Under the pieces are notes generated by a model, which worked only from the letters and a program-made list of their open reading frames with translations, made no database searches and was not told the DNA's origin. 18,523 nucleotides of DNA, taken from Acidobacteriota bacterium (GTDB lineage Bacteria; Acidobacteriota; Thermoanaerobaculia; Multivoradales; UBA5704). The position numbers were made by a program, and so were the translations under genes. Shown here one piece after another: positions 4,022 to 18,175 of the stretch; the first letter of the stretch is position 1, and each line of letters opens with the position of its first letter. Location of the stretch: contig JBDTZG010000085.1 of assembly GCA_040005235.1 (NCBI GenBank), positions 1-18,523 on the forward strand, in the 5' to 3' direction.

Positions 4022-4044
4022 TAGGGGCGAGGCATGCCTCGCCT
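4021..4044 (+). repeat. GTAG-family REP-like palindrome, possible bidirectional terminator
   Basis: GTAG tetranucleotide followed by the perfect 18 bp palindrome GGCGAGGCATGCCTCGCC (4026-4043), located between convergent genes. Confidence 0.7.
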
Positions 4045-4056
4045 CACTTCGGCTTA

Positions 4057-4704
4057 CTAGAACGCGAAGATCAACCCCGCCGACGCCTCGCCCTGGTAGA
4101 GAGCCTGGTTGACCTCGCGGTCGTGGCGCCGGTCGTCATCGCGAAAGCGGGCGTCCAGGTCAGTCCAATAGCCGCGTCCTTCGAGGCGCAGTCCCAGATT
4201 GTGGTTGAAGAAGATCTTCACGCCGCCGCCCATAGAGGCAGAGGCGCGGTCTTCGGCCTCCAGGTCCGCGAACTTAGGGTCGATCCGGGTGACGCCGCCG
4301 GTCACCGAGATGAACGGCACGACCTGGCCGCCCCCCCATTCGTAGTAGATGCCGCCCTGGAGGTAGCTGATCTCGACGTCGCCGAGCCGCTCGGAGGGAT
4401 CGAACAGACCGGGATCGAGGGTGAACGCGCTCTGCTGCCGGTTGACCAGCGCTTCGAAGCCAAAACCGCTCTGGCCGAACGGGATGTCGACGATCACGCC
4501 GAACACGGAGCTCTTGTCGACCTCGACGTCCGCGTCGTTCAGAAAATCCCGGTTCGTCGCGGTGAGCTGGCCGCTGGTGCGATACCCCGCGGTCGGGGTG
4601 ATCTGGAACTGGCCCTGGGCGGAAGCGGCCCGGGCCGAGGTGAAAGCGCCCGCCGCGGCAAGCGAAAGTAGAGCGAGTCGGAGGGTGGGGACAGACTTGG
4701 TCAT
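4057..4704 (-). CDS. Outer-membrane beta-barrel protein (OmpA/PorT-like small barrel)
   Basis: Start at MTKSVPTLRL with AGGAGA RBS. Signal peptide ends in ASA-Q, followed by amphipathic strands (SMGGGVKIFF, LGLRLEGRGYW) and a C-terminal Phe (AGLIFAF). Confidence 0.85.
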   Translation of the reverse strand: MTKSVPTLRLALLSLAAAGAFTSARAASAQGQFQITPTAGYRTSGQLTATNRDFLNDADVEVDKSSVFGVIVDIPFGQSGFGFEALVNRQQSAFTLDPGLFDPSERLGDVEISYLQGGIYYEWGGGQVVPFISVTGGVTRIDPKFADLEAEDRASASMGGGVKIFFNHNLGLRLEGRGYWTDLDARFRDDDRRHDREVNQALYQGEASAGLIFAF

Positions 4705-5326: not shown

Positions 5327-5689
5327 ATGTCGCGATCCCTCGCCGAACAGATCGAATTCGTCGCCACCCACCAAAGGCGCCAGGAGGCGGAAGTACTGGC
5401 CGAAGCGCTGCGGGCGGGTCTCGCCGAGATCTATCAGGACGCGCTGGTTCAGGCGTTCCTCGCGGGAGAGGTTTCGCGCGCCTGGATGGTTGAAGAGGTG
5501 GGAGCGGACCGTCTGAACGAGATCGAGCAGCGGAGGGACGCATTCGAGAAGGATCTCGCCGGTGCGGCGTCGATCCTCGCGGCTCGGGCACACGAACCCA
5601 GGCCTCCGACCTGGGCTAACGGGAGACGGCCTTTCAGGCCTGAAACCTCGATTCGGAGCGCGGGCGGCCCAACGGGCCGCGTCACGTAA
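5327..5689 (+). CDS. Small helical hypothetical protein (antitoxin-like), C-terminus runs into a REPIN-like repeat
   Basis: MSRSLAEQIEF...DAFEKDL reads as a plausible helical protein. TATAAT at 5312-5317 lies 9 nt before the ATG. In frame with the upstream ATG 5240, which is an alternative start. Confidence 0.6.
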   Translation: MSRSLAEQIEFVATHQRRQEAEVLAEALRAGLAEIYQDALVQAFLAGEVSRAWMVEEVGADRLNEIEQRRDAFEKDLAGAASILAARAHEPRPPTWANGRRPFRPETSIRSAGGPTGRVT

Positions 5690-5709
5690 GCCCAGGGCAA
5701 CGCCCTGGG
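5597..5709. repeat. REPIN-like element copy 2
   Basis: Arms equal the reverse complement of the copy 1 arms with 3 differences; the 22 bp central spacer is unrelated. Confidence 0.88.
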
Positions 5710-5712
5710 ATC

Positions 5713-6087
5713 TCACCCCTTCGGCTCCGCCGCCTCGATCCTCGCCGGTTCCTTGGTGCTCCGGGCGCGGCGCCCGCGGTCTTCGGAGCGGACTCCGAAG
5801 ATCTCGAGCTGCGGATTGGAGAAGCCCATGTGGGCGCGAGCCAGAGCCGAGAGCCGGCGGATCGCCTGTTCGGCTTCCAGGTCGAGCTGGCGGCGGCGGA
5901 CGACCGCCTCTTTTCTTAGCCCTTCCAGGCGCTGAAGATCGGCCTGGGTCTCCCGCAGCTCGGCGACCGTCTGCCGGGCGAGCGCGTAGGTCTGGTCGCC
6001 GCCGGGAAGGTCCGGGAGCACTTCCTGAATGTTCTGGACCATGCTCTGCCACCGGTCCAGCCGAGCTGCGTACGATTTTTCGCCCAT
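5713..6087 (-). CDS. Hypothetical 124 aa alpha-helical/coiled-coil protein adjacent to the 21 bp periodic array
   Basis: GAAGGAGA RBS before ATG 6087. Long amphipathic helices are followed by GFSNPQLEIFGV and a basic tail. No family recognised. Confidence 0.8.
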   Translation of the reverse strand: MGEKSYAARLDRWQSMVQNIQEVLPDLPGGDQTYALARQTVAELRETQADLQRLEGLRKEAVVRRRQLDLEAEQAIRRLSALARAHMGFSNPQLEIFGVRSEDRGRRARSTKEPARIEAAEPKG

Positions 6088-6132
6088 CGGGTTCTCCTTC
6101 GCGTGGAACCGCGACCCCTTTTTTGTGGGGGG

Positions 6133-6141
6133 AGAATATCA
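6133..6141 (-). promoter_or_regulatory. Candidate extended -10 promoter (TGaTATTCT) for the 124 aa gene
   Basis: Minus-strand TG-n-TATTCT about 45 nt upstream of ATG 6087, at the edge of the array. Confidence 0.45.
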
Positions 6142-6153
6142 CACCAGGTTTCC

Positions 6154-6646
6154 GGAACGCTCCGGTAAAGCCGCGGATCGCTCCGCCTGTCGCACGGAAG
6201 ACTCCTGACTACCAGCGGAAGACTCCTCGGCTTTTCAGGAACATTCCGGTGATACCGAGGAACATTCCCGGGAAACCCAGGAGTGCTCCTTTCTACTCAC
6301 GGAATACTCCTGAGTCTCAGAGGAAGATTCCTGAGGTCTAGAGGAATCTTCCGTGTAAGCCTGGAAATGTTCCGGCGATTCAGCGGAACATTCCTGTGGC
6401 TCTCAAGACTTTTCCGGAGCTTCACAGGAACATTCCTCCGAATGCACGGAGTTTTCCGCATTGCTAGCGGAATGTTCCCTGGGGTGTCAGGAATGTTCCG
6501 GACGATCCTAGGAACGCTCCGCCGGCTGCCAGGAGGACTCCGGGGCATCTCCGGAACGTTCCTGCCTCTCACGGGATCTTTCCTGGGGATCAGCGGACTT
6601 TTCCGGTACCCCGGCGGAGCGATCCGCCGGATGGCCGGAGCGTCGT
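6154..6646. repeat. Periodic palindrome array: 23 x GGA-N4-TCC at exact 21 bp period with unique 11 bp spacers, plus a degenerate terminal unit
   Basis: Motif starts at 6154, 6175, 6196 ... 6595, 6616 with no indel. 21 of 23 units match GGA-N4-TCC exactly (6364 has GAA, 6406 has AGA). A degenerate unit follows at 6637. Confidence 0.95.
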
Positions 6647-6678
6647 TTGGGCGCTGCTCGGTCCGGGACGCGAGCGGG

Positions 6679-7407
6679 TCAGTCCTTCTGTTGTCGCGCC
6701 GACCAGCGGGCGAGATCTTCGGGGGTGTTGACGTTGGCGAAGATCTCCCGCGGCGGGCCGAACGACTGGAGATCCGCCTCGGAGAGCGCGGCGACGGTCA
6801 GTCCGGGTTCCTCCGCGAGGTCGTAGAGGGCGTAGTTTCCCGCGGCGACGCGACGGTCGAGCGCGGCGAGGGCCTTCGGTCCGTAGAGGGCGGCCAGCGG
6901 CTCGGCGCCTTCCTCCCAGCGCGGCAGCACGAGGTCGAAGGCTGCCCCGGCCGCCACCTCCGCGATCTTGGCCAGCAGGTGGGCCGGCACGGCGGGCAGG
7001 TCGCAGGCGAGCACCAGAAGGGAACGTGCCGGAAAGGCACGCGCCGCACCGAGCAGACCGGCGGCCGGTCCGCGGCCGGGACCGTCGGAAAGCGACAGCG
7101 CGCCGGTCACCAGGGAGCGCCCAGCGTCCGCCACCGCCACTTCCGCGCAGACTTGTCCGAGGCGGCGAAAAGCCCACTCCGCCAAGGTTTCGACCCCGGT
7201 TTCGCCCTCCTCGCCCTCGCGGCCCTCGCGGCCCTCGCGGCGATCGCTACGCCGGGCGATTTCCAGGGTCGCTTTGTCCCGTCCGAAGCGCCGGCTGGCC
7301 CCCCCGGCGAGCACGATGCCGACCGGCTCGGCCCCCTCCGGCGCGGCCGGGTTGCCGGTTGGCACCGTGCTAGCATTCTGGGCTTCAGACGATTCAAAAG
7401 GAGACAT
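6679..7407 (-). CDS. mobA: Molybdenum cofactor guanylyltransferase
   Basis: Motifs IVLAGGASRRFGRDKA, GPAAGL, LVLACDLP, EPLAALY and FANVNTPEDL. Start is uncertain (alternative GTG at 7365). Confidence 0.93.
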   Translation of the reverse strand: MSPFESSEAQNASTVPTGNPAAPEGAEPVGIVLAGGASRRFGRDKATLEIARRSDRREGREGREGEEGETGVETLAEWAFRRLGQVCAEVAVADAGRSLVTGALSLSDGPGRGPAAGLLGAARAFPARSLLVLACDLPAVPAHLLAKIAEVAAGAAFDLVLPRWEEGAEPLAALYGPKALAALDRRVAAGNYALYDLAEEPGLTVAALSEADLQSFGPPREIFANVNTPEDLARWSARQQKD

Positions 7408-8479: not shown

Positions 8480-9730
8480 TTATATTTGGCGCGATCTTGC
8501 CATCGTGCGATTGCCAAAATCAAGGGCCACGTCCAGCAGACGTCCGGCGAGCCGGTCGATCGGCACGACCTCTTCGACCGCTCCCTTGGCCAGCGCCTCG
8601 CGCGGCATGCCGTAGACCACCGAGCTGGCCTCGTCTTGCGCGAGGGTGCGGGCGCCGGCCTGGCGCATCGCGAGCAGACCGGCGGCACCGTCCGCCCCCA
8701 TGCCGGTGAGCAGCACCCCCACCGCCGCGGCCCCGGCGACCTCGGCCACAGAGGAAAACAGAACGTCGACGCTCGGCCGGTGGTGGTTGACCAGTGGCTC
8801 GGCCGACAGACGGACCGCGAGCCGGCCCCCTTCGCGCACCAGCACGAGATGACAGTCGCCCGGGGCGATCAGCGCCCGGCTGGCCAGCACCTCCGCGCCA
8901 TCCGTCGCTTCCGCCACCTCGATCGCGCAGATCTGGTCGAGCCGCCGGGCAAAGGCGCCGGTGAAGGCGCGCGGCATGTGCTGGACGATCAGCAGGGCCG
9001 GCGAATCCTCGGGCAGGGCGCCGAGCAACACGCGCAGCGCCTCCGGCCCGCCGGTCGAGGCGCCGATCGCCACCAGCCGCGGCCAGGGGGGCGAGCCGGG
9101 CGGGCGGTTGGGGATCGGAATCGCCGACCGCGGGACGGCGATCGGAACGCGGACCGGCCCGGGTTCCCGAGCGGCCGGGCGGATCGGCCCGGTGGCCGAG
9201 CCGCTCGCCGGCCCGGTCATCGGAGCCGTCGCCGGATCCCGCCGCCGGCCGGGCAAGCGGGCCTGGCTCGCGCCGCGCAGGGTTTCAAGCAAGCTCTCGG
9301 CCGACTCTTCGAGAAACGCCCGCAACCCGAACGCCGGCTTGGCCACCACTTCGAGCGCCCCGAGGTCGAGTGCCGCGAACGCGGCGGCCGTTCCGCTCTG
9401 GGCGTGGCTCGAACAGACGACCACCGGGATCGGGTCGTCGCGCATCAACCGGCGCAGGAACGCCAGGCCGTCCATCCGCGGCATTTCGAGATCCAGCAGG
9501 ATGACGTCCGGCCGCTCGCGTTCGATCTTGGCGAGCGCAAGGATCGGGTCGGCGGCGGTAGTCGCGACCAGGTCGGGCTGGGAGCCGACCAGCGCTGCCA
9601 TGAACTGGCGCATGACCGCGGAGTCGTCGACCACCAGCACTCGCGTGGGCCGCGGCTCGGTCCCCGCAGCCGGGGCGCCCGGGGCGGCCGGGCGGGGGCC
9701 CGTCGAGCCCGCGGCGCGCTTGAGCGTCAC
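8480..9730 (-). CDS. cheB: Chemotaxis methylesterase/deamidase with receiver domain
   Basis: Receiver domain (VVDDSAVMR, LLDLEMPRMDG) and catalytic motifs GASTGGP, VQHMP, HRPSVDVLF, LTGMGADGA. GTGA overlap with the cheR stop. Confidence 0.96.
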   Translation of the reverse strand: MTLKRAAGSTGPRPAAPGAPAAGTEPRPTRVLVVDDSAVMRQFMAALVGSQPDLVATTAADPILALAKIERERPDVILLDLEMPRMDGLAFLRRLMRDDPIPVVVCSSHAQSGTAAAFAALDLGALEVVAKPAFGLRAFLEESAESLLETLRGASQARLPGRRRDPATAPMTGPASGSATGPIRPAAREPGPVRVPIAVPRSAIPIPNRPPGSPPWPRLVAIGASTGGPEALRVLLGALPEDSPALLIVQHMPRAFTGAFARRLDQICAIEVAEATDGAEVLASRALIAPGDCHLVLVREGGRLAVRLSAEPLVNHHRPSVDVLFSSVAEVAGAAAVGVLLTGMGADGAAGLLAMRQAGARTLAQDEASSVVYGMPREALAKGAVEEVVPIDRLAGRLLDVALDFGNRTMARSRQI

Positions 9731-10635
9731 GGCGCCTCCTGGGCGAGCGAGGTCCGCGGCGGCTGAAGCCCCGCGGTCTCGGCGCGGCGATAGACGTTCG
9801 GGGCCTCGGGGCGAAAGTCGGGACCCGCCGCTCCCGCGAGGTTCTCCGCGTGGCCCAAAAAAAGCAGCCCGCCCGGCCGTAGATGGCGCGCCAGGCGCGA
9901 GATCACCCCGGCTCGGGTCGCGGGATCGAAATAGATCAGGACGTTGCGGCAGAAGATCAGATCGAGATCAGGGCCGACCGGATAGCGCGCCGCGGCGAGG
10001 TTGATCCGCTCGAAACGCACCAGCCGCTGGATCTCGGGCGCCGCTTTGACCTTCCCCTCCTGGTGGTTCAGGCCGCGGAGGAGAAATCGCTTCCGCAGGC
10101 TCTCGGAGATGCCCGACGCCCGCTCCGCCGGCCAGACCGCTTCCCTGGCGAGTGCCAAAGCGTGGGTCGAAAGATCCGAGGCGAGGATGTCGATCTTCCA
10201 TCCCGCCTCGACCGGCAGGGTCGAGGCGAGCAGCATCGCGAGAGAAAACGGCTCTTCGCCGGTCGAGCAGGCGGCGCTCCAGGCGTTCACCCGGCGCGGC
10301 CGTGCGCCCGCATCGGCCTCGGCCGCCCAGGCGGGGAGGATCTGCGTCGAGAGCAGCTCGAACTGCTTGGCCTCGCGAAAGAACGAGGTCTCGTGGGTGC
10401 ACAGGCAGTCGATCATCCGCACCGTTTCGCTCTCGCCCAGCTCGCGCGCGCGGTGGTAATAGGCCGAAAAGGAATCGAGGCCGAGCTCGGCGATCCGCCG
10501 GCCGAGCCGACGGATCAATAGAGTCCGTTTCGAATCCGGCAGGTAAATCCCTGATTCCTTCTGGATCCAAGCCTGAAACCGCGCGAACTCGGCATCGCCG
10601 ATCGACCGCGGCGGCTCGATCGGCGCGCCCCTCAT
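9727..10635 (-). CDS. cheR: Chemotaxis protein-glutamate methyltransferase
   Basis: Motifs THETSFFRE, WSAACSTGEEP, LASDLS, DLIFCRNVLIYFD and GGLLFLGHAE. Confidence 0.96.
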   Translation of the reverse strand: MRGAPIEPPRSIGDAEFARFQAWIQKESGIYLPDSKRTLLIRRLGRRIAELGLDSFSAYYHRARELGESETVRMIDCLCTHETSFFREAKQFELLSTQILPAWAAEADAGARPRRVNAWSAACSTGEEPFSLAMLLASTLPVEAGWKIDILASDLSTHALALAREAVWPAERASGISESLRKRFLLRGLNHQEGKVKAAPEIQRLVRFERINLAAARYPVGPDLDLIFCRNVLIYFDPATRAGVISRLARHLRPGGLLFLGHAENLAGAAGPDFRPEAPNVYRRAETAGLQPPRTSLAQEAP

Positions 10636-11168
10636 CCGGCTCCCCCGCCAGACGCCCCGTCAAACGCCCCGCCAGAGATCTCGGACATCACCGCGGCCGA
10701 TAAATCGAGCACCGGCACGAACCGATCGCCTAGATTCACCAAGCCGCCGAGCAGGTCAGACGAGATCGCGCCATCGAACCGCGGCGCGGGGCTGATCCCC
10801 TGCTCCCCCACCTCGACGAAGCCGAGCACGTTCGAAACCCAGCCCCCCAGGCGGGCCGCGCCCTCGCTCGGCCGGAAGATCAGGATCGCCGGCCGGGCGG
10901 TGGAAGTTTCGCTGGCCTCCGCGCGAGCGACCAGACCGAGCTTGCTCGCGAGATCGATCACCGGCAGCGCTTGGCCGCGCAGGTTGAGCGCGCCGAGCAC
11001 CCAAGGCGGGGCACCCGGCGCGCGGGTGATCGGCCCGGGCTCGACGATCTCTTCAAGCCGGGAAAGCTCGATCGCCAGCTCCACCTCGGCGAGCGCGAAC
11101 AGCAGGAAGCGCCGTTCCTCTTCGAATGGGGCTGCATCCTCCAGATCGAAAAGCTCGCCGTCGTTCAC
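10632..11168 (-). CDS. cheW: Chemotaxis coupling protein
   Basis: Motifs ITRAPGAPPWVLGALNLRGQALPVIDL and FVPVLDL. GTG at 11168 directly follows the MCP stop; ATGA overlap with cheR. Confidence 0.92.
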   Translation of the reverse strand: MNDGELFDLEDAAPFEEERRFLLFALAEVELAIELSRLEEIVEPGPITRAPGAPPWVLGALNLRGQALPVIDLASKLGLVARAEASETSTARPAILIFRPSEGAARLGGWVSNVLGFVEVGEQGISPAPRFDGAISSDLLGGLVNLGDRFVPVLDLSAAVMSEISGGAFDGASGGGAG

Positions 11169-11169
11169 T

Positions 11170-12957
11170 TTAGAACCGCTCGAAGTCCGGGTCCGGCCGG
11201 CCGGAGCGCGATGTCGGCCCGCCGCGCGAGATCGGCCGGGCCGTCCGCCGGCCCGGCATCGCGGCGGCTTCTGGAGGCGCCGGGGCAAACGGAGCGACTG
11301 CCGTGGCGCGCGGCTCGGGAACGCTCTCGCCGTCGGCCAAGCGGAAGATGTCCAGCTCCTGGCGCAGCGACTCGGACTGCGCGGCCATCTCCTGGGCCGT
11401 GCTCGCGAGTTGCTCTGCCGCCGAGGCGTTCCTTTGCGCCACGTCGTCCACCTGGCCCATCGCCCGGTTGATCTGCTCGACGCCGGTCGCCTGCTCGTCG
11501 GAGGCCGCGGCGACCTCCTGGACCAGCTCGGCGGTCTTCTTGATCGCCGGCACCAGCTCGACCAGCAGCCGGCCGGAACGTTCGGCGACGCCGACGCTCG
11601 ATCCGGCCATCCCGCGGATCTCCTTGGCCGCCGCCTGGCTCCGTTCGGCGAGCCGGCGGATCTCCGCCGCGACGACCGAGAAGCCGCGCCCGTGGTCCCC
11701 CGCCCGCGCCGCTTCGATCGCCGCGTTCAAGGCGAGCAGGTTGGTCTGGTAGGCGATCTCCTCGACGATCGAAATCCGTTCCGCGATCGAGCGCATCGCG
11801 GAGAGCGTCTCGGACACCGCGGCGGCGCTCGCCTCGGCATCCTCCGAGCCGCGGATCGCCATCTTTTCCATCTGCCGGCTGCTGCTCGCGTTCTGGGCGA
11901 TCGAGGCGGTCATCTCTTCGAGCGAAGAGGTAGCTTCTTCGACCGACGCCGCCTGATCTCCGGTGCCGTTGGACAAACTCTGCGAGGTCGAGGCGACTTG
12001 CGAAGAGGCGGCAGACAGCAGCCGGATGCCGGTGCGCACCTCGCGGATCGTCCGGCGCAGGTTTTCGGTCATCCGCTTGAACGCGTTGCCCAACGAATCC
12101 TTCTCCGAGCGCGGCGCCACCTCGGCGCGCAGGTCGCCGTTCGAAATCCCGTCGGCGAGATCGGCCATCGACCGTAGGTAGGCGATCATCCGGCCGAGCG
12201 CGGTCTGCAGCTGACCGATCTCGTCGCGCGAGCTGACCTCGACCTGGATGTCGAGATCGCCTTCGGCCAGCCGGTCGAACGCCTTGGCCGCGGTGCGGAT
12301 CGGCGCCACCAGCGAGCGCACCAGGTACCAGGAAAGGCCGACCAGCAAGAGCAGGCAGCCGATCGAGACGAAGGTGATCACGACCAGCACCCGCCCGGCG
12401 TTTTTCTGGTGGCCGCGGGCGGTTTCAAACGCCCCGGAAATTCCATCTTTCGCCCGCTTCATCGCCGCGGCCAGCCGCTGCTGGATGCCGACGTAGCGGG
12501 CGCGCATGGCGTCGAGGTCGCGGGTCACCGCCTCGCCCGTGTCCGCCGCGATCAAGCGCTCCGTCGCGTGCTTCGCCAGGTCGTAGTAGGCCGCGAAATC
12601 GGCCTCCAGGCTCGCCATTTCGCGCGGATCGAGATTCGGGATCTTCTTGCCTTCCTCCATCCGGGCGATCATTTCGTCGCGCGAATGGTCGGCCTCGGCG
12701 AGGAACTCCGTATCCTTGGCCGCCGCGGCGTCCTGCAGCTGGCGCTGGATCGAGGCGAGCTTTTCGCCCAGGTCGCGATGCAGCTCCCAGGCCGGGAAAT
12801 AGCCGGTCTCGATCGCGGAGAACACCTCGTCGTTCTTGATCACCGCCCGCGGGATGGCGACCAGGATGATCAGAAACGCCGCCGCGGCCACGGCGGGCAG
12901 CAGCATGACCTTGTGGACGACCTTCAATCGCGAGACCAGATCGGAGCGCAGTTTCAT
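11170..12957 (-). CDS. Methyl-accepting chemotaxis protein (2 TM, helical periplasmic domain, HAMP, short 34H-like signalling domain)
   Basis: Hairpin tip [44 protein letters not shown] motif SRDEIGQL, and methylation helices QAASVEE / NASAAEQ. Confidence 0.96.
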
Positions 12958-12963
12958 CGGTTT

Positions 12964-13419
12964 CTAGTTCCCGATCCGTAGCGCCTTGACGCCCGCGCCA
13001 AGATCCGTTCCGGCCGCGACGTAGCCGAGTCCGCCGGGGGACTTGGCGACGAAATCCATCACCTCGCGATCGGAATCGAGCTCGGCGGGCGGCGTCTCCT
13101 TGCCGGAGAACAACAGCCGCTGCCAATAGCTCTTGACCGCCGCGACGTCTTTGGCGAGGACGCTTTTGGAAAACGCCGCGCGCACCGCGGCGCCCGGCGC
13201 GCGGTCGACCACCGCGACCTTGATGCCGTCGCCCCACCGCGTCTCTTTCTTGAGGAAAAAGGCGGCGAGTTTTTCTTTCGACAACGAAGCGGTCGCATTG
13301 CCCGCGTTGACCACGATCTGATACGGCTCGTCGGCGCGGCCGGAGGAAACCAGCGCACCGAAGAGAAGCACGCCGACGGCAGCGACGAAGAAGGGACGGA
13401 GGATTCGCGAGGCTCGCAT
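12964..13419 (-). CDS. Small periplasmic protein of the phosphate-ABC substrate-binding-like (half-PBP) type
   Basis: Signal peptide, then YQIVVN..N....LS, YWQRLLFSGKETPP and VMDFVAKSPGGLGYV. GGAG spacing favours ATG 13419 over 13428. Confidence 0.8.
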   Translation of the reverse strand: MRASRILRPFFVAAVGVLLFGALVSSGRADEPYQIVVNAGNATASLSKEKLAAFFLKKETRWGDGIKVAVVDRAPGAAVRAAFSKSVLAKDVAAVKSYWQRLLFSGKETPPAELDSDREVMDFVAKSPGGLGYVAAGTDLGAGVKALRIGN

Positions 13420-13432
13420 TTCGTCCATCTCC

Positions 13433-14617
13433 CTAAAAGCTGAACTGCACGCCGAATAGAAAGAGATCGGTTCGCGGTTCGAGGCTGTCGGTGGCGACCG
13501 CCTCGATCAGATCCTCGCCGTTCGGGTGGGCGAAGAGGTTGCCGTCGACCCGGTGGTAGGAGGTACGCAGGACCAGGTTCTCGTTGTACCAGTAGCTCAC
13601 CCCGAGCGAAACCTCGTCGTGCTTCTGCAGCGAGTCGAAGGTGTCGGGGAGCTCGTCGATGAATTTCGCGCGCACCCGGTCCGCCCGCAGCGCCGCCTGC
13701 CAGTGCGGGCCGAACCGGCGAGCCAGCTCGACGTAGCCGGCGTCGGTGTCAAACAAATCTTCCCGATGGCGTGCGAATTCGCCGCGCACCAGCCAGGGGG
13801 ACCGATCGAATTCGACGTGCCCGCCATAGGAAGCGAAATCGCCCCAACGGTCCCGGCGCGGGTCGGCGTCTTCTAGCTTGCCGGCGTAGGAGGAGAGACC
13901 GAGGCTCAAACCATCGACCGGGGTCTGAAAGACCAGGCGCCCGCCGAGCATTCGATCGACCTGATCCTCTGACGCCGAGCCGCCGTCCGCGGTTTCCGCG
14001 GGCGAACCGGGAAGCCCTTCGAGCGCTTGTTCAAACGGCACTTCGACGGTAAAGGCCGCGCCGCCGGCATAGGCGTCGTAGGTCGCCTCCCAGCCGCCGG
14101 CGGAAAAAAGGTTGCCGGCCGAGCCGACGCCGTCGTAGGACTCGGTGACCAGGCCGGTCGGGCCGTAGACCGATTGCGCCAGGTTGAACAGCGGGCGCAG
14201 GGTTCCAATGTCGAAGATGTCGGTGTAGATGCCGAACGGCAGGCGCGAGCGGCCGAAATGGAGCTTCGCCCGATCGGAGACCTCCCATGTCACCGCGCCG
14301 ACATCCAGATCGATCGACTCGTCGGCGTCCGTGACGTCCCAGACCGGCACGACGGTGAAGCGGATGCGGTCGGTCGGAGTGAAATCGAAATGCAGCGCGG
14401 CGACCACGTTGTGGGTTTCCGGATCGCTCACTTCGTCGCCTTGAAGATAGGTGTAGGAATTCGAGCTTCCTGCGGCCCACGAACCGTAGCCGTGAATCGA
14501 GATCTTGTCGCTCAGATCCACCGCCCGCAGGGGCAGGCCGAGCAGCAGAGCCGGCGCGAGAAGCACAGCGGCCCTGCGCACTCCCCTCAGCGCGCTTCCT
14601 TGTGATCGTTCAAACAT
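13433..14617 (-). CDS. Outer-membrane beta-barrel porin-like protein
   Basis: GGAGGAGG RBS and signal peptide. ISIHGYGS, FGRSRLPFGIY, many amphipathic strands and C-terminal GVQFSF. Confidence 0.85.
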   Translation of the reverse strand: MFERSQGSALRGVRRAAVLLAPALLLGLPLRAVDLSDKISIHGYGSWAAGSSNSYTYLQGDEVSDPETHNVVAALHFDFTPTDRIRFTVVPVWDVTDADESIDLDVGAVTWEVSDRAKLHFGRSRLPFGIYTDIFDIGTLRPLFNLAQSVYGPTGLVTESYDGVGSAGNLFSAGGWEATYDAYAGGAAFTVEVPFEQALEGLPGSPAETADGGSASEDQVDRMLGGRLVFQTPVDGLSLGLSSYAGKLEDADPRRDRWGDFASYGGHVEFDRSPWLVRGEFARHREDLFDTDAGYVELARRFGPHWQAALRADRVRAKFIDELPDTFDSLQKHDEVSLGVSYWYNENLVLRTSYHRVDGNLFAHPNGEDLIEAVATDSLEPRTDLFLFGVQFSF

Positions 14618-14677
14618 CGAGGTCCCTCCTCCAAGACGCGAGGCCCTTCTGAGGCCGGCGTCGAAAATAGCTGGATT

Positions 14678-16378
14678 TCAGCTCAGATTACCGCCCGGCA
14701 AGCCGGCGACGCGAGCGGCGGACCGCAGCAGCGACGCCAGGTCCAACACGAACGCCACCTCCCCCGAACCGAGGATGGTCGAGCCGGCCAGCCCGGGCAG
14801 CCCTTCGAACTGCGGCGCGAGCGGCCGGATGACGATCTGCTCGCGGCCGAGCAGCGCGTCGATCGCGAGGCCGACCTTGCCGCCGCTCCGCTCCGTCCGC
14901 GGCGCTACCACCAGCAGCTGCTCGCGCTCCGGAACGGTCCCCGGCACCGCCAGCAGGTCGCGCAGCCGGACGCAGGAGAGCGGTTCGCCCCGCAGGGCGA
15001 CCACGCCGGCCGAAGCGCCCTCGCCGGCCGGCCGGTCGATCACCTCGTCGACCGCTTCGAGCGGCACCACGTAGGTCTCGGCCCCCACCGCCACCGCCAG
15101 GCCGTCGAGCAGGCCGAGCGCGAGCGGCAGGCGCAGCCTGAGCGTGGTTCCAAGGCCCCTCTGGCTCTCCAGCTCGACGTGCCCGCGCAGCGATTCGATC
15201 GTCCGGCGAACGACGTCCAGGCCGACGCCTCGCCCCGACGACTCGTCGATCGTCTCGGCGGTGGATAAACCGGGCAGCAGCACCAGCCGGTCGATCTCCT
15301 CGCCCTCGATCCCTTCAACCAGCTGACCGGCGGCCCGCGCCTTGGCGAGAATCTTTTCGCGATCGAGCCCGCGGCCGTCGTCGGCCAGCTCGACCACCAG
15401 AGAGTTGCCGTCGCGATGGGCCGAAAGCAGAATCGTTCCGGCCGGCTCTTTGCCCCGCAGGCGGCGTTCGGCGGGCACCTCGATGCCGTGGTCGACGGCG
15501 TTCCTCGCCATGTGCGCGAGCGGCGCGCGGAGATGCTCGGCGAGCCCCGCATCGACCTCGACGTCTTCGCCTATGAAACGCAGGCGCACCTCTTTGCCGC
15601 GCTGGGCCGACAGGTCGCGCACGGTGCGTTCCAGGGTGCGGAACACCGGCCCGATCGGTACCATGCGCAGCTCCAGAACCAGCTCCTGAAGCTCGGCGTG
15701 GAGACGGTCGTGCTCGCGGTGAAGCTCCAGAATGTCGGCTTTGGCCGTCTCTTCCCGGGCGAGCAGATTGGCGATCCGGCCGCGCGCGATCCCCAGCTCG
15801 CCCACCCGGTCGACCAAGGTGTCGAGCCGCTCGATCGCCACGCGAAGGGTCGGCCGGGCCGCCGCCTCGGGGAGCGCCACCGCCTCGACGGTCGGCCAGC
15901 GGCCGGTCGCCTGGCTCGATCCCGCAGGCGGCTCAACCGTCCGCGAACCCCACGGCTGCGCGCTCCGGTCGACCGGAACGTCCAGGCCGTCCTCGCCGGC
16001 CAGCTGGGCCAGGCGGGAGATCCCGGCCTCGTCCTCGGACCGCTCCTCTTCGGCCCCCGCGGCGGCCCGGGAGAGCATGCCGCGCAAAGCGTCGACCGCC
16101 AGGAGCAGCATCGTGATCGATTCATCCGAGAGCTGCGTCTTGCCCGCGCGCACCGCGTCGAGATAGTCCTCCATCCGGTGGGCGTAGCGCGACAGGAGCG
16201 GAAAGCCGAGCGACGCGGCGTCCCCCTTGAGCGTATGCGCCAGGCGAAAGACGTCGTGCAGGCGATCGCGGTCGTCCGGCGTCCGTTCGAGCGCCAGCAG
16301 GTCGGCCTCCATCGCCTCCAGGTTGTCGCGCGCCTCGGCGAGGAACGTCTGGAGCAGGGCGTCGAAATCGATCGGCAT
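14678..16378 (-). CDS. cheA: Chemotaxis histidine kinase (P1-P3-P4-P5, no obvious P2)
   Basis: HPt motif FRLAHTLKG, dimerisation region LRVAIERLDTL, kinase motifs HMARNAVDHGIE, DDGRGL and SGRGVGLDVV, and a C-terminal CheW-like domain. Confidence 0.96.
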   Translation of the reverse strand: MPIDFDALLQTFLAEARDNLEAMEADLLALERTPDDRDRLHDVFRLAHTLKGDAASLGFPLLSRYAHRMEDYLDAVRAGKTQLSDESITMLLLAVDALRGMLSRAAAGAEEERSEDEAGISRLAQLAGEDGLDVPVDRSAQPWGSRTVEPPAGSSQATGRWPTVEAVALPEAAARPTLRVAIERLDTLVDRVGELGIARGRIANLLAREETAKADILELHREHDRLHAELQELVLELRMVPIGPVFRTLERTVRDLSAQRGKEVRLRFIGEDVEVDAGLAEHLRAPLAHMARNAVDHGIEVPAERRLRGKEPAGTILLSAHRDGNSLVVELADDGRGLDREKILAKARAAGQLVEGIEGEEIDRLVLLPGLSTAETIDESSGRGVGLDVVRRTIESLRGHVELESQRGLGTTLRLRLPLALGLLDGLAVAVGAETYVVPLEAVDEVIDRPAGEGASAGVVALRGEPLSCVRLRDLLAVPGTVPEREQLLVVAPRTERSGGKVGLAIDALLGREQIVIRPLAPQFEGLPGLAGSTILGSGEVAFVLDLASLLRSAARVAGLPGGNLS

Positions 16379-16390
16379 CGCCCCCGTCCC

Positions 16391-16909
16391 CTAGAGCAGC
16401 TTGACCCAGGCGCTGCCGTCGTCGGTGTGAAAGATCAGCTTCCGGCCCCGCTCGCCGCCCACCGCCTCGGCGACGATCGGAATCGCCCGCCGCCTCAACG
16501 TCTGCTGCGCCACCTCGACGTTGCGTCCGCCCAGGTGACCCGCATGGCCCGCAGCGCTGCCGTTCGCGCCGGCAAACGCAGCGAGCACCCGCGCCCCGCC
16601 GAAAACCTTGGCATGCAGGTTCGCCTCGCGGGCACCGGAGGCGACCACCGCATCGATCAGCCCTTCGATCGCCGCATTGCCGTAGCGCCAGGAAGCGCCG
16701 CCCCCCTCCACCCAGTGCGGCAGAAGGAAATGGTTCAGGCCGCCGACTTGGCGCTCCGGATCCCATAGGCAGACCGAGACGCACGAGCCGAGGATGGTCG
16801 AGATGGCCGTGGGCGTCCGGGCGATCGAAAAACCGCCCGGCGTCACGTAGATCCGCTCCCGCGTCTGGATCGCGGGCTCGGCATGCTGTGGTTCCGCCAC
16901 CGCGGCCAT
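16391..16909 (-). CDS. cheD: Chemoreceptor glutamine deamidase
   Basis: Motifs TILGSCVSVCLWD, GGLNHFLLP, RYG, AKVFGGA, GGRNV and GGERGRKLIF. Alternative TTG start at 16939. Confidence 0.95.
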   Translation of the reverse strand: MAAVAEPQHAEPAIQTRERIYVTPGGFSIARTPTAISTILGSCVSVCLWDPERQVGGLNHFLLPHWVEGGGASWRYGNAAIEGLIDAVVASGAREANLHAKVFGGARVLAAFAGANGSAAGHAGHLGGRNVEVAQQTLRRRAIPIVAEAVGGERGRKLIFHTDDGSAWVKLL

Positions 16910-16955
16910 CGAGCCCGCTTCGAAATCCCTGCCTCTCAACGTGGGAATCCCGAAC

Positions 16956-17771
16956 CTAGCGATCCAACGTGGAGCAATAGACCGCAGGAGCGGCCTGGGC
17001 GGCGAGGAGGTCGAACAGCTCGGCGTCGATCGGCGCGAAACGCCCGCCCTTCTGAGGCAGCAGACGGAACACCGCGATCAGCCCGGCCACCCGGCCGTCG
17101 AGCTTCAGCGGCACGCAGGCCGAAAGATGCTCCTCGCCCTCTCGCTTTTCCGCCTCGGGCGCCGTGCCGGCGAAATAGGCGCTGCCGGAAGCCGCCGAGC
17201 GGCCGATCCAGCCTTCACCCAGGCTCACCCGCTCGAATGGGTCGTCCACCAGCCCGAACGACGAGACGCGCAGCAGCTCGTTCGATCCGGGGGCGAGCTC
17301 GTAGATGCCGAACTCTTCGCAGCCGATCAGGTTGATCACGATCTCCTGGATCGCTTGGAGCACCTCTTCGCGGTCGAGCGTCGAGTGCAGACGATATGTC
17401 GCGACGTATAGATTTGCGAGGTCGTTGTTGCGCTGCTCCAGCTCGGTGAAGCGATTGGAGAACCCGTGATTTTCGCGCTCGATCTGGGACAGCTGAAGCT
17501 CCAGCCGCTCGCGGTCCTGGCGGAACGAATCGAGCTCGCGCGCAAGGCCGGAGGCCTGATCGCGCCAACGCGCCGCCTCGTCCTCCAGCCGGCGGCGCTC
17601 GCCGTCGACCTCCGCGGTCAGGCGGCGCAGCTTCTCGTTCTCGGCCAACAGGTCTTGAATGTAGCGCTGGGTGTCCTCGCGGACCTTTTGCACGTAATGG
17701 CCAGGCTCGGTGCCGGCCGCCAGCTTTTCGTTCGGTCGATCCGTCGGTTGATCGCTCGTTTGATCTTTCAT
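16956..17771 (-). CDS. Coiled-coil plus GAF domain protein with no output domain
   Basis: About 95 aa heptad-rich N-terminal part, then GAF-type LHSTLDREEVLQAIQEIV...GEGWIGRSA...ACVPLKLDGRVAGLI...DAELFDLLAAQAA. ATGA overlap with the upstream regulator. Confidence 0.88.
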   Translation of the reverse strand: MKDQTSDQPTDRPNEKLAAGTEPGHYVQKVREDTQRYIQDLLAENEKLRRLTAEVDGERRRLEDEAARWRDQASGLARELDSFRQDRERLELQLSQIERENHGFSNRFTELEQRNNDLANLYVATYRLHSTLDREEVLQAIQEIVINLIGCEEFGIYELAPGSNELLRVSSFGLVDDPFERVSLGEGWIGRSAASGSAYFAGTAPEAEKREGEEHLSACVPLKLDGRVAGLIAVFRLLPQKGGRFAPIDAELFDLLAAQAAPAVYCSTLDR

Positions 17772-18175
17772 AGGGCGGCCATTCCGGCGCCCGCCGGAGC
17801 CGCACCGGCCGACGCGAGCTGGTTGTCGACCTTGGTCAACAGCTCCAGGCCGTTGATCGGCTTGGTCACATAGTCGTTGCAGCCCGCCTCGAACCCGCGC
17901 TCGACGTTTTCCTCTTCGCCGCGAGTGGTGACCATGATGATCGGCGTGGTCCTCGTCCCCTCTTCGGCGCGCAGCGCGCGGCAGACCGCGAAGCCGTCCA
18001 TCTTCGGCATGATCACGTCGAGCAGAATCAGGTCGGGCCGTTCGACCCGGGCCTTCTCGATCGCGTCTTCGCCGTTGGTGGCCTTGACCACCTGGTAGCG
18101 GCCGTTCAGGATCATCTCTTCCATGAACAGCGTGGTCATCGAATCGTCAACCAGCAGAACCTTCTGTTTGAGCAT
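17768..18175 (-). CDS. Single-domain response regulator (CheY/PilH-like receiver)
   Basis: Motifs LLVDDS, LILLDVIMPKMDG, IIMVTT and DYVTKP. Confidence 0.95.
   Translation of the reverse strand: MLKQKVLLVDDSMTTLFMEEMILNGRYQVVKATNGEDAIEKARVERPDLILLDVIMPKMDGFAVCRALRAEEGTRTTPIIMVTTRGEEENVERGFEAGCNDYVTKPINGLELLTKVDNQLASAGAAPAGAGMAAL

Follow-up and report, generated by a model that had tools for sequence, protein, structure and literature searches.

The stretch of DNA analysed in this study (the window) is 18,523 nucleotides in length and represents contig C106 of a Thermoanaerobaculia MAG (G000) of 6.2 Mb, with 140 contigs and a GC content of 66%. An array of phased palindromes occupies the gap between two minus-strand genes, one encoding a MobA-like nucleotidyltransferase and the other a small protein, P0001. 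The features of the locus are as follows.

5713..6087, minus strand: P0001, 124 aa, all-helical, of an uncharacterised family; candidate cognate binder of the array
6094..6099, minus strand: Shine-Dalgarno sequence AAGGAG, read from the sequence, 6 nt before the ATG at 6087
6099..6114, minus strand: short GC hairpin in the putative P0001 5′ leader, from stem-loop prediction (plus strand), conserved in orthologs
6133..6142, minus strand: conserved -10-like element GTGATATTCT following TG, at -55 to -46 from the P0001 start codon
6154..6646, no strand assigned: phased palindrome array of 23 units, each a 10-bp GGA-RYRY-TCC palindrome plus an 11-bp unique spacer
6637-6646: decayed half-unit at the 24th position, of which only the GGA half remains
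6679-7407, minus strand: MobA-like nucleotidyltransferase gene, upstream of the array and on the same strand as P0001

Farther out, Pfam searches of the window ORFs identified an outer-membrane beta-barrel gene, a cyclophilin gene and a chemotaxis operon. The operon (8480-18175, minus strand) is complete, with genes for a response regulator, a GAF protein, CheD, CheA, two unknown ORFs, an MCP, CheW, CheR and CheB. A perfect 9-bp tandem repeat (3.2 copies) was found at 7213-7241, within the MobA-like gene. Directly after the P0001 stop codon, two matches to the Acido-Lenti-1 RNA were observed, at 5597-5641 (plus strand, 30.8 bits) and 5665-5709 (minus strand, 25.6 bits), both under the gathering score of 37. 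Relative to the flanks, contig depth at these sites is 3-6 times as high, and the Logan contigs are interrupted here, which indicates a multi-copy hairpin repeat. A third Acido-Lenti-1 match was seen near another array (L024, 2594-2639).

The 23 units of the array start at 6154+21n (n = 0 to 22) with no indel when read in the 21-bp register, as the earlier note on this DNA had described. The cores match GGA-N4-TCC exactly in 21 of 23 units, those at n = 10 and n = 12 being off by one base each. Over the whole window, 28 matches to this motif were observed, compared with 8.35 ± 2.58 expected and a maximum of 15 in 200 shuffles; 21 of the 28 lay inside the array, all in a single phase. The spacers are all different (23/23), also as described earlier, and their pairwise identity averages 3.7 of 11. 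Of the consensus proposed at that time, approximately (A/C)GGAanntTCC(G/T), the GGA-N4-TCC part was retained and the centre was refined: the four central bases favour purine-pyrimidine-purine-pyrimidine (12 of the 23 units in the window array), and with the composition tallied over 140 units the motif is better written GGA-RYRY-TCC. The GC content of the array is 0.58, versus 0.67 for the window. Stop codons number 2, 5, 2, 9, 4 and 1 in the six frames across the array, so that no frame is open, in agreement with the earlier reading. Third-position GC is 0.54-0.73 in the array-overlapping ORFs versus 0.79-0.88 in the flanking genes; that of P0001 (0.83) is coding-like.

Logan contigs from two runs, possibly those of the source sample, match positions 5612-7300 without any difference. 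An assembly artefact, one of two objections that the earlier note had anticipated, is excluded for the window array because five other genomes also have arrays at the orthologous position, six loci in total. The other objection was an intact heptad-repeat ORF in orthologs, and none was seen at the orthologous loci.

In these six loci, the gene-linked array is syntenic with that of the window. The P0001 orthologs of four sister species share 85-89% protein identity, and their arrays keep the same register with 22-24 units. The distance between the P0001 ATG and the first palindrome in the window is 67 bp, and the last unit lies at -76 from the ATG in six of the seven arrays shown with their register. 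Comparison of 122 aligned unit pairs, the window array against five orthologous arrays (four sister species), showed an identity of 0.94 at GGA/TCC, 0.58 at the four central bases and 0.53 in the spacer, and the indels between orthologous arrays were of whole units only. Because the identity of 0.94 and the whole-unit offsets stand against a spacer identity of 0.53, the half-sites and the phase are judged to be under purifying selection, with the rest drifting. The species comparison thus supports the earlier proposal that spacing and palindrome are selected and the spacer is free.

The earlier note had also treated the array as a single element and suggested a genome scan for periodic palindrome arrays and their neighbours. 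The array itself stood, its singularity did not, as it is one of about 70 arrays per genome. Seventy-three arrays of 21-bp period, with differing palindromes and lengths of about 190-630 bp, were found in G000, and the array proved to be tied to a paralogous P0001 family that had gone unnoticed. An array was called where the lag-21 autocorrelation was at least 0.52 and at least 0.12 above that of six other lags, and 79 scan windows were merged to 73. Palindromes of 8, 10, 12, 14 and 20 bp all occur at the 21-bp period, the spacer shortening as the palindrome lengthens. The arrays cover only about 0.5% of the genome and are often found at contig ends; some of the gene-less ones lie between convergent genes. 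Array types were assigned with four regular expressions, which left 50 of the 73 as 'other', with the following results.

GGA-N4-TCC: 8 arrays
CTGG-N-CCAG: 10 arrays
CACCGGTG-like: 3 arrays
TGCAC-N2-GTGCA: 2 arrays

GGA-N4-TCC arrays with 9 to 21 phased units each number seven in G000. Two other arrays (C134:56700-57130 and C10:25030-25450) display a 42-bp super-period, made up either of an 8-mer in turn with its reverse complement (CACCAGTG / CACTGGTG) or of two alternating unit variants. Open frames occur over many arrays of this GC-rich genome, three of the 73 arrays sit at the 3′ end of one gene family, and part of the 73 may be ordinary coding repeats. In the ten arrays examined, GC3 of the array-overlapping ORFs was non-coding-like, and outside its repeats the longest ORF that covers a clean array was nonsense-like.

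The P0001 family comprises 27 genes in G000 (28 profile matches; 20 by tblastn). A scan-positive array lies within 300 bp upstream of 10 of the 27, and weaker 21-bp periodicity (0.44-0.58) was detected upstream of three more; each gene-linked array is built on an inverted repeat of its own. No array accompanies about half of the family genes, and 63 of the 73 arrays are without a family gene. When every good ORF located up to 2.5 kb from any of the 73 arrays was entered into a clustering, the P0001 family was the only neighbour common to many arrays (9 arrays), the next cluster being mixed (6). No gene downstream of the paralogs was conserved among 20 paralog loci. The GGA type in G000 consists of 2 gene-linked and 5 gene-less arrays, and the CTGG-N-CCAG type of 1 gene-linked and 9 gene-less arrays.

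In the protein tree, all four sister paralog pairs with arrays in G000 have similar palindromes, and one clade of G014, the complete one-contig genome of another genus, has GGA...TCC palindromes with spacings of 4 to 8. This match between clade and palindrome fits co-diversification, and whole-module duplication without any binding would also yield it. A distant paralog, C139 (about 27% identity), has GGA-N4-TCC units as well; therefore, palindrome and protein do not correspond strictly one to one.

The linkage is replicated across paralogs, species and genera. In G014, a 21-bp array immediately precedes 13 of the 16 family genes, and the palindromes of these 13 arrays, 8 to 20 bp long, are all different. 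Five palindrome types were tested in this genome, and each was found in one or two gene-linked arrays and in gene-less ones, as listed below.

GGAAGCTTCC: at least five loci, one gene-linked, at 215 kb
GGAT-RY-ATCC: three loci, one gene-linked, at 2033 kb
GGAGAT-N2-ATCTCC: about fifteen loci, two gene-linked; 46 matches, with 0 for the mirrored control
GTAC-N4-GTAC: six loci, one gene-linked
GGAAAGCTTTCC: three loci, one gene-linked

Among loci fetched from other genomes, 11 of the 27 assessable ones reached the same array threshold; for best-hit loci from other genera, an array was present in 3 of 16 and absent from 13. Given these partial pass rates, the array-gene linkage is frequent and not universal. 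The mirrored control pattern, four CCT-N4-AGG units at 21 bp, gave 34 matches in G012 (genus g6) and none in the other genomes, and G012 probably has arrays of this palindrome.

Of 24 other genomes from the same taxonomic family, 23 contained the P0001 family (1-41 matches per genome), and none of 16 genomes from other families of the order did. The P0001 family was also found in none of 300 other genomes of the phylum, in a search of limited sensitivity that scored 14 candidates per genome. A profile search of 1.84 billion representatives returned 791 proteins at E values up to 0.001. As judged from these sequence comparisons, the arrays and small proteins form a lineage-specific system of modules with many parallel specificities.

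Each named relative of P0001 is a 'hypothetical protein' of Thermoanaerobaculia, and searches of Pfam, NCBIfam, PHROGs, PADLOC, PDB sequences and the ESM Atlas for its function gave no more than coiled-coil noise and further 'hypothetical protein' entries. Four of 24 family members had a weak match to ChrB_N (E 0.0015), which did not reach the cut-off. The AlphaFold model (pLDDT 85.9) predicts a helical hairpin with no strands: a helix at residues 6-26, a 58-residue helix at 30-87, two short helices and a basic C-terminal tail. No known DNA-binding fold or family was found for this model, the Foldseek and VIA-align matches being generic helical hairpins with Z up to 7.6. When two copies were modelled, a symmetric antiparallel homodimer was predicted, with residue 54 against residue 54. 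Its ipSAE was 0.65, compared with 0.00 for the best control, with a partner pLDDT of at least 73 and at least 90% of contacts agreeing between runs; among solved pairs, 20 of 30 attained the mark applied, as did 1 of 23 single chains, and these counts hold only approximately here, where an alignment of our own was used. The modelled 58-residue helix would be approximately 87 Å long and 21 bp of B-DNA approximately 71 Å, and the P0001 rod could be a ruler that fixes the period across paralogs.

Between the array and the gene, GTGATATTCT lies one unit-length downstream of the last palindrome. It is identical in three of the five alignable orthologs (L033, L036 and the window) and similar in the remainder, and on sequence grounds it is a putative promoter element. 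A simple sigma-70 scan of the window returned no full sigma-70 promoter, and terminator-like sites occurred at chance level only. Hairpins comparable to that at 6099..6114 precede several paralogs. The paralogs on C127, C107, C126 and C8 have a common motif, GGGCCGCA-TTCC-GCG-like, which is hairpin-capable and located approximately 20-40 nt 5′ of the Shine-Dalgarno sequence; this motif may represent either a structure of the leader or an element resembling a GG-N10-GC promoter.

The reading that we favour, to which we give an even chance, is that the array is a track of duplex DNA on which the cognate P0001-family dimer forms a coat, probably with autoregulation, and that the gene-less arrays are bound in trans. 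Since 21 bp is two turns of B-DNA, one short palindrome per 21 bp would place every site on the same face of the helix. The reader of such a track would be a dimer with two-fold symmetry, formed by the small coiled-coil protein P0001 from the gene just downstream, and many dimers would load side by side to coat about 480 bp. Occupancy would probably set the expression of P0001 itself, because the last site lies one unit upstream of the conserved -10-like element. At other places in the chromosome, this protein would also bind, in trans, the gene-less arrays that share its palindrome, and the module of array and gene would have given rise to dozens of variants per genome, every one of which has a palindrome of its own. 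Two-fold symmetric dimers read inverted half-sites; this, together with the two-turn period, favours duplex DNA as the target. The earlier note had left a one-face protein track and a structured RNA or single-stranded DNA side by side. The constant 21-bp period, kept whatever the palindrome length, fits helical phasing or a protein ruler and not hairpin arrays, and no covariation was seen (see below); the double-stranded track is thus the alternative that gained, and RNA or single-stranded DNA gained nothing.

It is also conceivable, if unlikely, that the arrays are tracks for some other protein or proteins and that the P0001-family genes are merely regulated cargo or hitch-hikers. A protein with no recognisable DNA-binding fold would be less surprising on this account, as would the 63 arrays without an adjoining family gene and the many family genes without an array. 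However, dozens of other specificities would then be needed, and the surroundings of the arrays hold no other recurrent gene family. P0001 paralogs, 27 in G000 and 16 in G014, are of the same order in number as the palindrome types, and every type tested has one or two linked genes, both of which count against this account.

A further possibility, to which we assign a low probability, is that the array acts as RNA or single-stranded DNA, a row of hairpins or of repeated motifs ahead of the gene comparable to a type III antitoxin or a sponge; P0001 would then be the partner that binds the RNA. The arrangement, in which repeats immediately precede the gene of a small protein and differ for each paralog, does resemble type III toxin-antitoxin loci, and the upstream gene on the same strand would allow read-through transcription. 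Both strands fold better than shuffles (z -10.8 and -7.8), as any palindrome array would. However, the variable positions within units gave 60 Watson-Crick, 36 G-U and 44 mismatched pairs of 140, showing no pairing signal, and between units the number of Watson-Crick pairs was 58, the permutation mean being 66.6. The mere 3 bp conserved in each arm here do not suffice for a stable stem; a strict 21-nt period whatever the palindrome length has no RNA rationale; Rfam matches were at noise level only; and gene-less arrays between convergent genes fit poorly with this account. Hairpins between units were considered when, in the clean array C88, the right half of each unit appeared complementary to the left half of the next, and the complementarity was gone over seven arrays (the 58 versus 66.6 above). 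A Csr-like sponge was ruled out by the lack of a CsrA gene and of any Rfam CsrB/Rsm match: CsrA (PF02599) had no match in the 100%-complete genome, and control genomes were matched.

Equally improbable in our estimate is that the arrays are selfish or neutral MITE-like tandem repeats, spreading and homogenised, with no host function and only a historical link to P0001. Its main support is the gain and loss of arrays. G000 and G003 have a gene-less array between an xerC-like gene and hslV, and the same site in G001 and G005 lacks it. Arrays C12 and C88 have 190 bp and 82 bp of flanks in common; therefore, an element of roughly 700 bp was copied. Array ends also often coincide with contig ends. 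This gain and loss of gene-less arrays appears to give the system a mobile, or at least dynamic, side, and dispersed intergenic copies with presence and absence between relatives, a feature of REP, BIME and MITE elements, were seen only among arrays that are gene-less. Under homogenisation, units would stay alike over their whole length, whereas here the spacers are 53% identical and the six half-site bases, with the phase, 94%; moreover, the gene-linked array keeps its place, register and 22-24 units in the six loci of five other genomes. The array ends carry inverted CCAC..CTCC / GGAG..GGTG, and the alignment of filled and empty sites did not resolve a target duplication. In G000, the gene-less GGA-type arrays on C12, C66, C82 and C88 are flanked, in 21-bp phase, by hybrid units, CCAC..CTCC on one side and GGAG..GGTG on the other, and outside these are ACACCGGTGT-like palindromes resembling another array type. 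Beside the gene-less array of C12 (L023, about 4040-4150), two palindromic segments of approximately 45 bp were observed (query 2241-2285 and 2303-2348); copies of up to 98% identity are scattered over very many loci in every genome of the genus, and the segments are a separate REP-like dispersed repeat.

A decayed or real heptad-repeat protein gene (21 bp being 7 codons) is given only a very slight probability. Some cleaner arrays do read as heptads with hydrophobic residues at a/d-like spacing, and open frames are common over arrays in this GC-rich genome, but coding heptads were rejected on the closed six frames of the window array, the non-coding GC3 over arrays and the nonsense-like non-repeat part of the longest ORF, and neither do the varying positions (4-7 and 11-21) fall in codon thirds nor do the orthologs have an intact ORF.

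Several known systems share part of this organisation. The partition centromeres of plasmids are bound by small proteins, as in parC/ParR (R1, pSK41), parH/ParG (TP228), the omega heptads (pSM19035) and sopC/SopB (F); these proteins coat the repeats cooperatively and repress their own promoter. Their short tandem repeats, in helical phase, immediately precede the gene of a small dimeric protein, much as the window array precedes that of P0001, a predicted dimer. However, partition centromeres belong to plasmids, whereas these arrays are chromosomal, with about 70 arrays, many of them gene-less, and 16-41 paralogous proteins per genome. The partition proteins have a ribbon-helix-helix or helix-turn-helix fold, in contrast to the helical hairpin of the P0001 model, and no ParA, ParM or TubZ NTPase adjoins P0001 by Pfam. 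By analogy, the array would work most like the plasmid centromere and operator arrays, yet the missing NTPase, the predicted fold, the chromosomal location and the dozens of arrays place it outside that class.

Iterons are repeats of 17-22 bp that recur approximately every 21-22 bp along a single helix face; the Rep protein that binds them is encoded next to them, and the repeat sequences differ between replicons. Both this one-face spacing and an adjoining gene for the cognate protein (here a candidate binder) are shared with the window array. Iterons are direct and non-palindromic, usually in 3-9 copies, and are accompanied by an AT-rich unwinding region and a Rep gene, whereas the window array is palindromic and lacks both: no Rep family was found in the window by Pfam, nor any AT-rich block, the GC content of the array being 0.58. 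About 70 arrays per genome are, in addition, incompatible with replication origins.

Type III toxin-antitoxin systems (ToxIN) carry 34-48 nt repeats in 2-6 copies that act as RNA and are processed by the toxin, and the protein is an endoribonuclease. They share with the arrays the tandem repeats directly upstream of a small protein gene and repeats cognate to each paralog; here, by contrast, the units are of 21 bp with a palindromic core in 10-29 copies, and the protein is all-helical. None of the ToxN/AbiQ, CptN and TenpN families was matched by P0001 and 23 relatives in Pfam and PADLOC.

In MatP/matS, RacA/ram, ParB/parS and Noc/NBS, a dimer, often with a coiled coil, reads a palindromic site at many places in the chromosome. 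These are single sites with one system per genome, compared with 10-29 phased copies and dozens of specificities here. CRISPR arrays likewise have short, partly palindromic repeats regularly interspaced with unique spacers; their direct repeats are about 23-50 bp with similar spacers, far longer than the 10-bp core and 11-bp spacer of the window array, a difference that the earlier note had rightly pointed out. CRISPR spacers are acquired from foreign DNA, strains thus differing in the spacers gained and lost, whereas those of the array are orthologous and drifting (53% identity), with units that can be aligned one to one between species, and no cas genes were found by Pfam among the 30 window ORFs. 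The array thus departs from CRISPR, iteron, partition NTPase, toxin-family and Csr elements, in keeping with the original impression that it is not a named element. A record-level literature search found no earlier description of phased palindrome arrays with a small protein, and the system looks categorically new.

Concerning the role of coated arrays in the cell, one tentative and rather doubtful suggestion is a programmable chromosomal address system in the Thermoanaerobaculia of this family, in which dozens of small orthogonal coiled-coil dimers, each reading a palindrome of its own repeated every two helical turns, would bridge or cluster arrays of the same type into landmarks that fold, segregate or insulate the chromosome. 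Each dimer would coat the array of its own gene and several gene-less ones, and bridging would take place via the rod-like bodies. If true, this would be a bacterial counterpart of satellite DNA and satellite-binding proteins. Such arrays break assemblies and may be mistaken for CRISPR-like or coding repeats, which calls for caution in annotating these genomes. If the pairing of array and P0001-family dimer as a coated duplex track is real, it would be a new kind of bacterial DNA-protein recognition module, in which a simple helical family attains tens of specificities per genome. It would also provide natural orthogonal DNA-binding parts together with their sites, a new class of nucleoid landmarks and a way to study the co-evolution of binding specificity and site arrays. 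The arrays account for about 30 kb of otherwise unexplained intergenic DNA per genome in a widespread, little-studied soil lineage.
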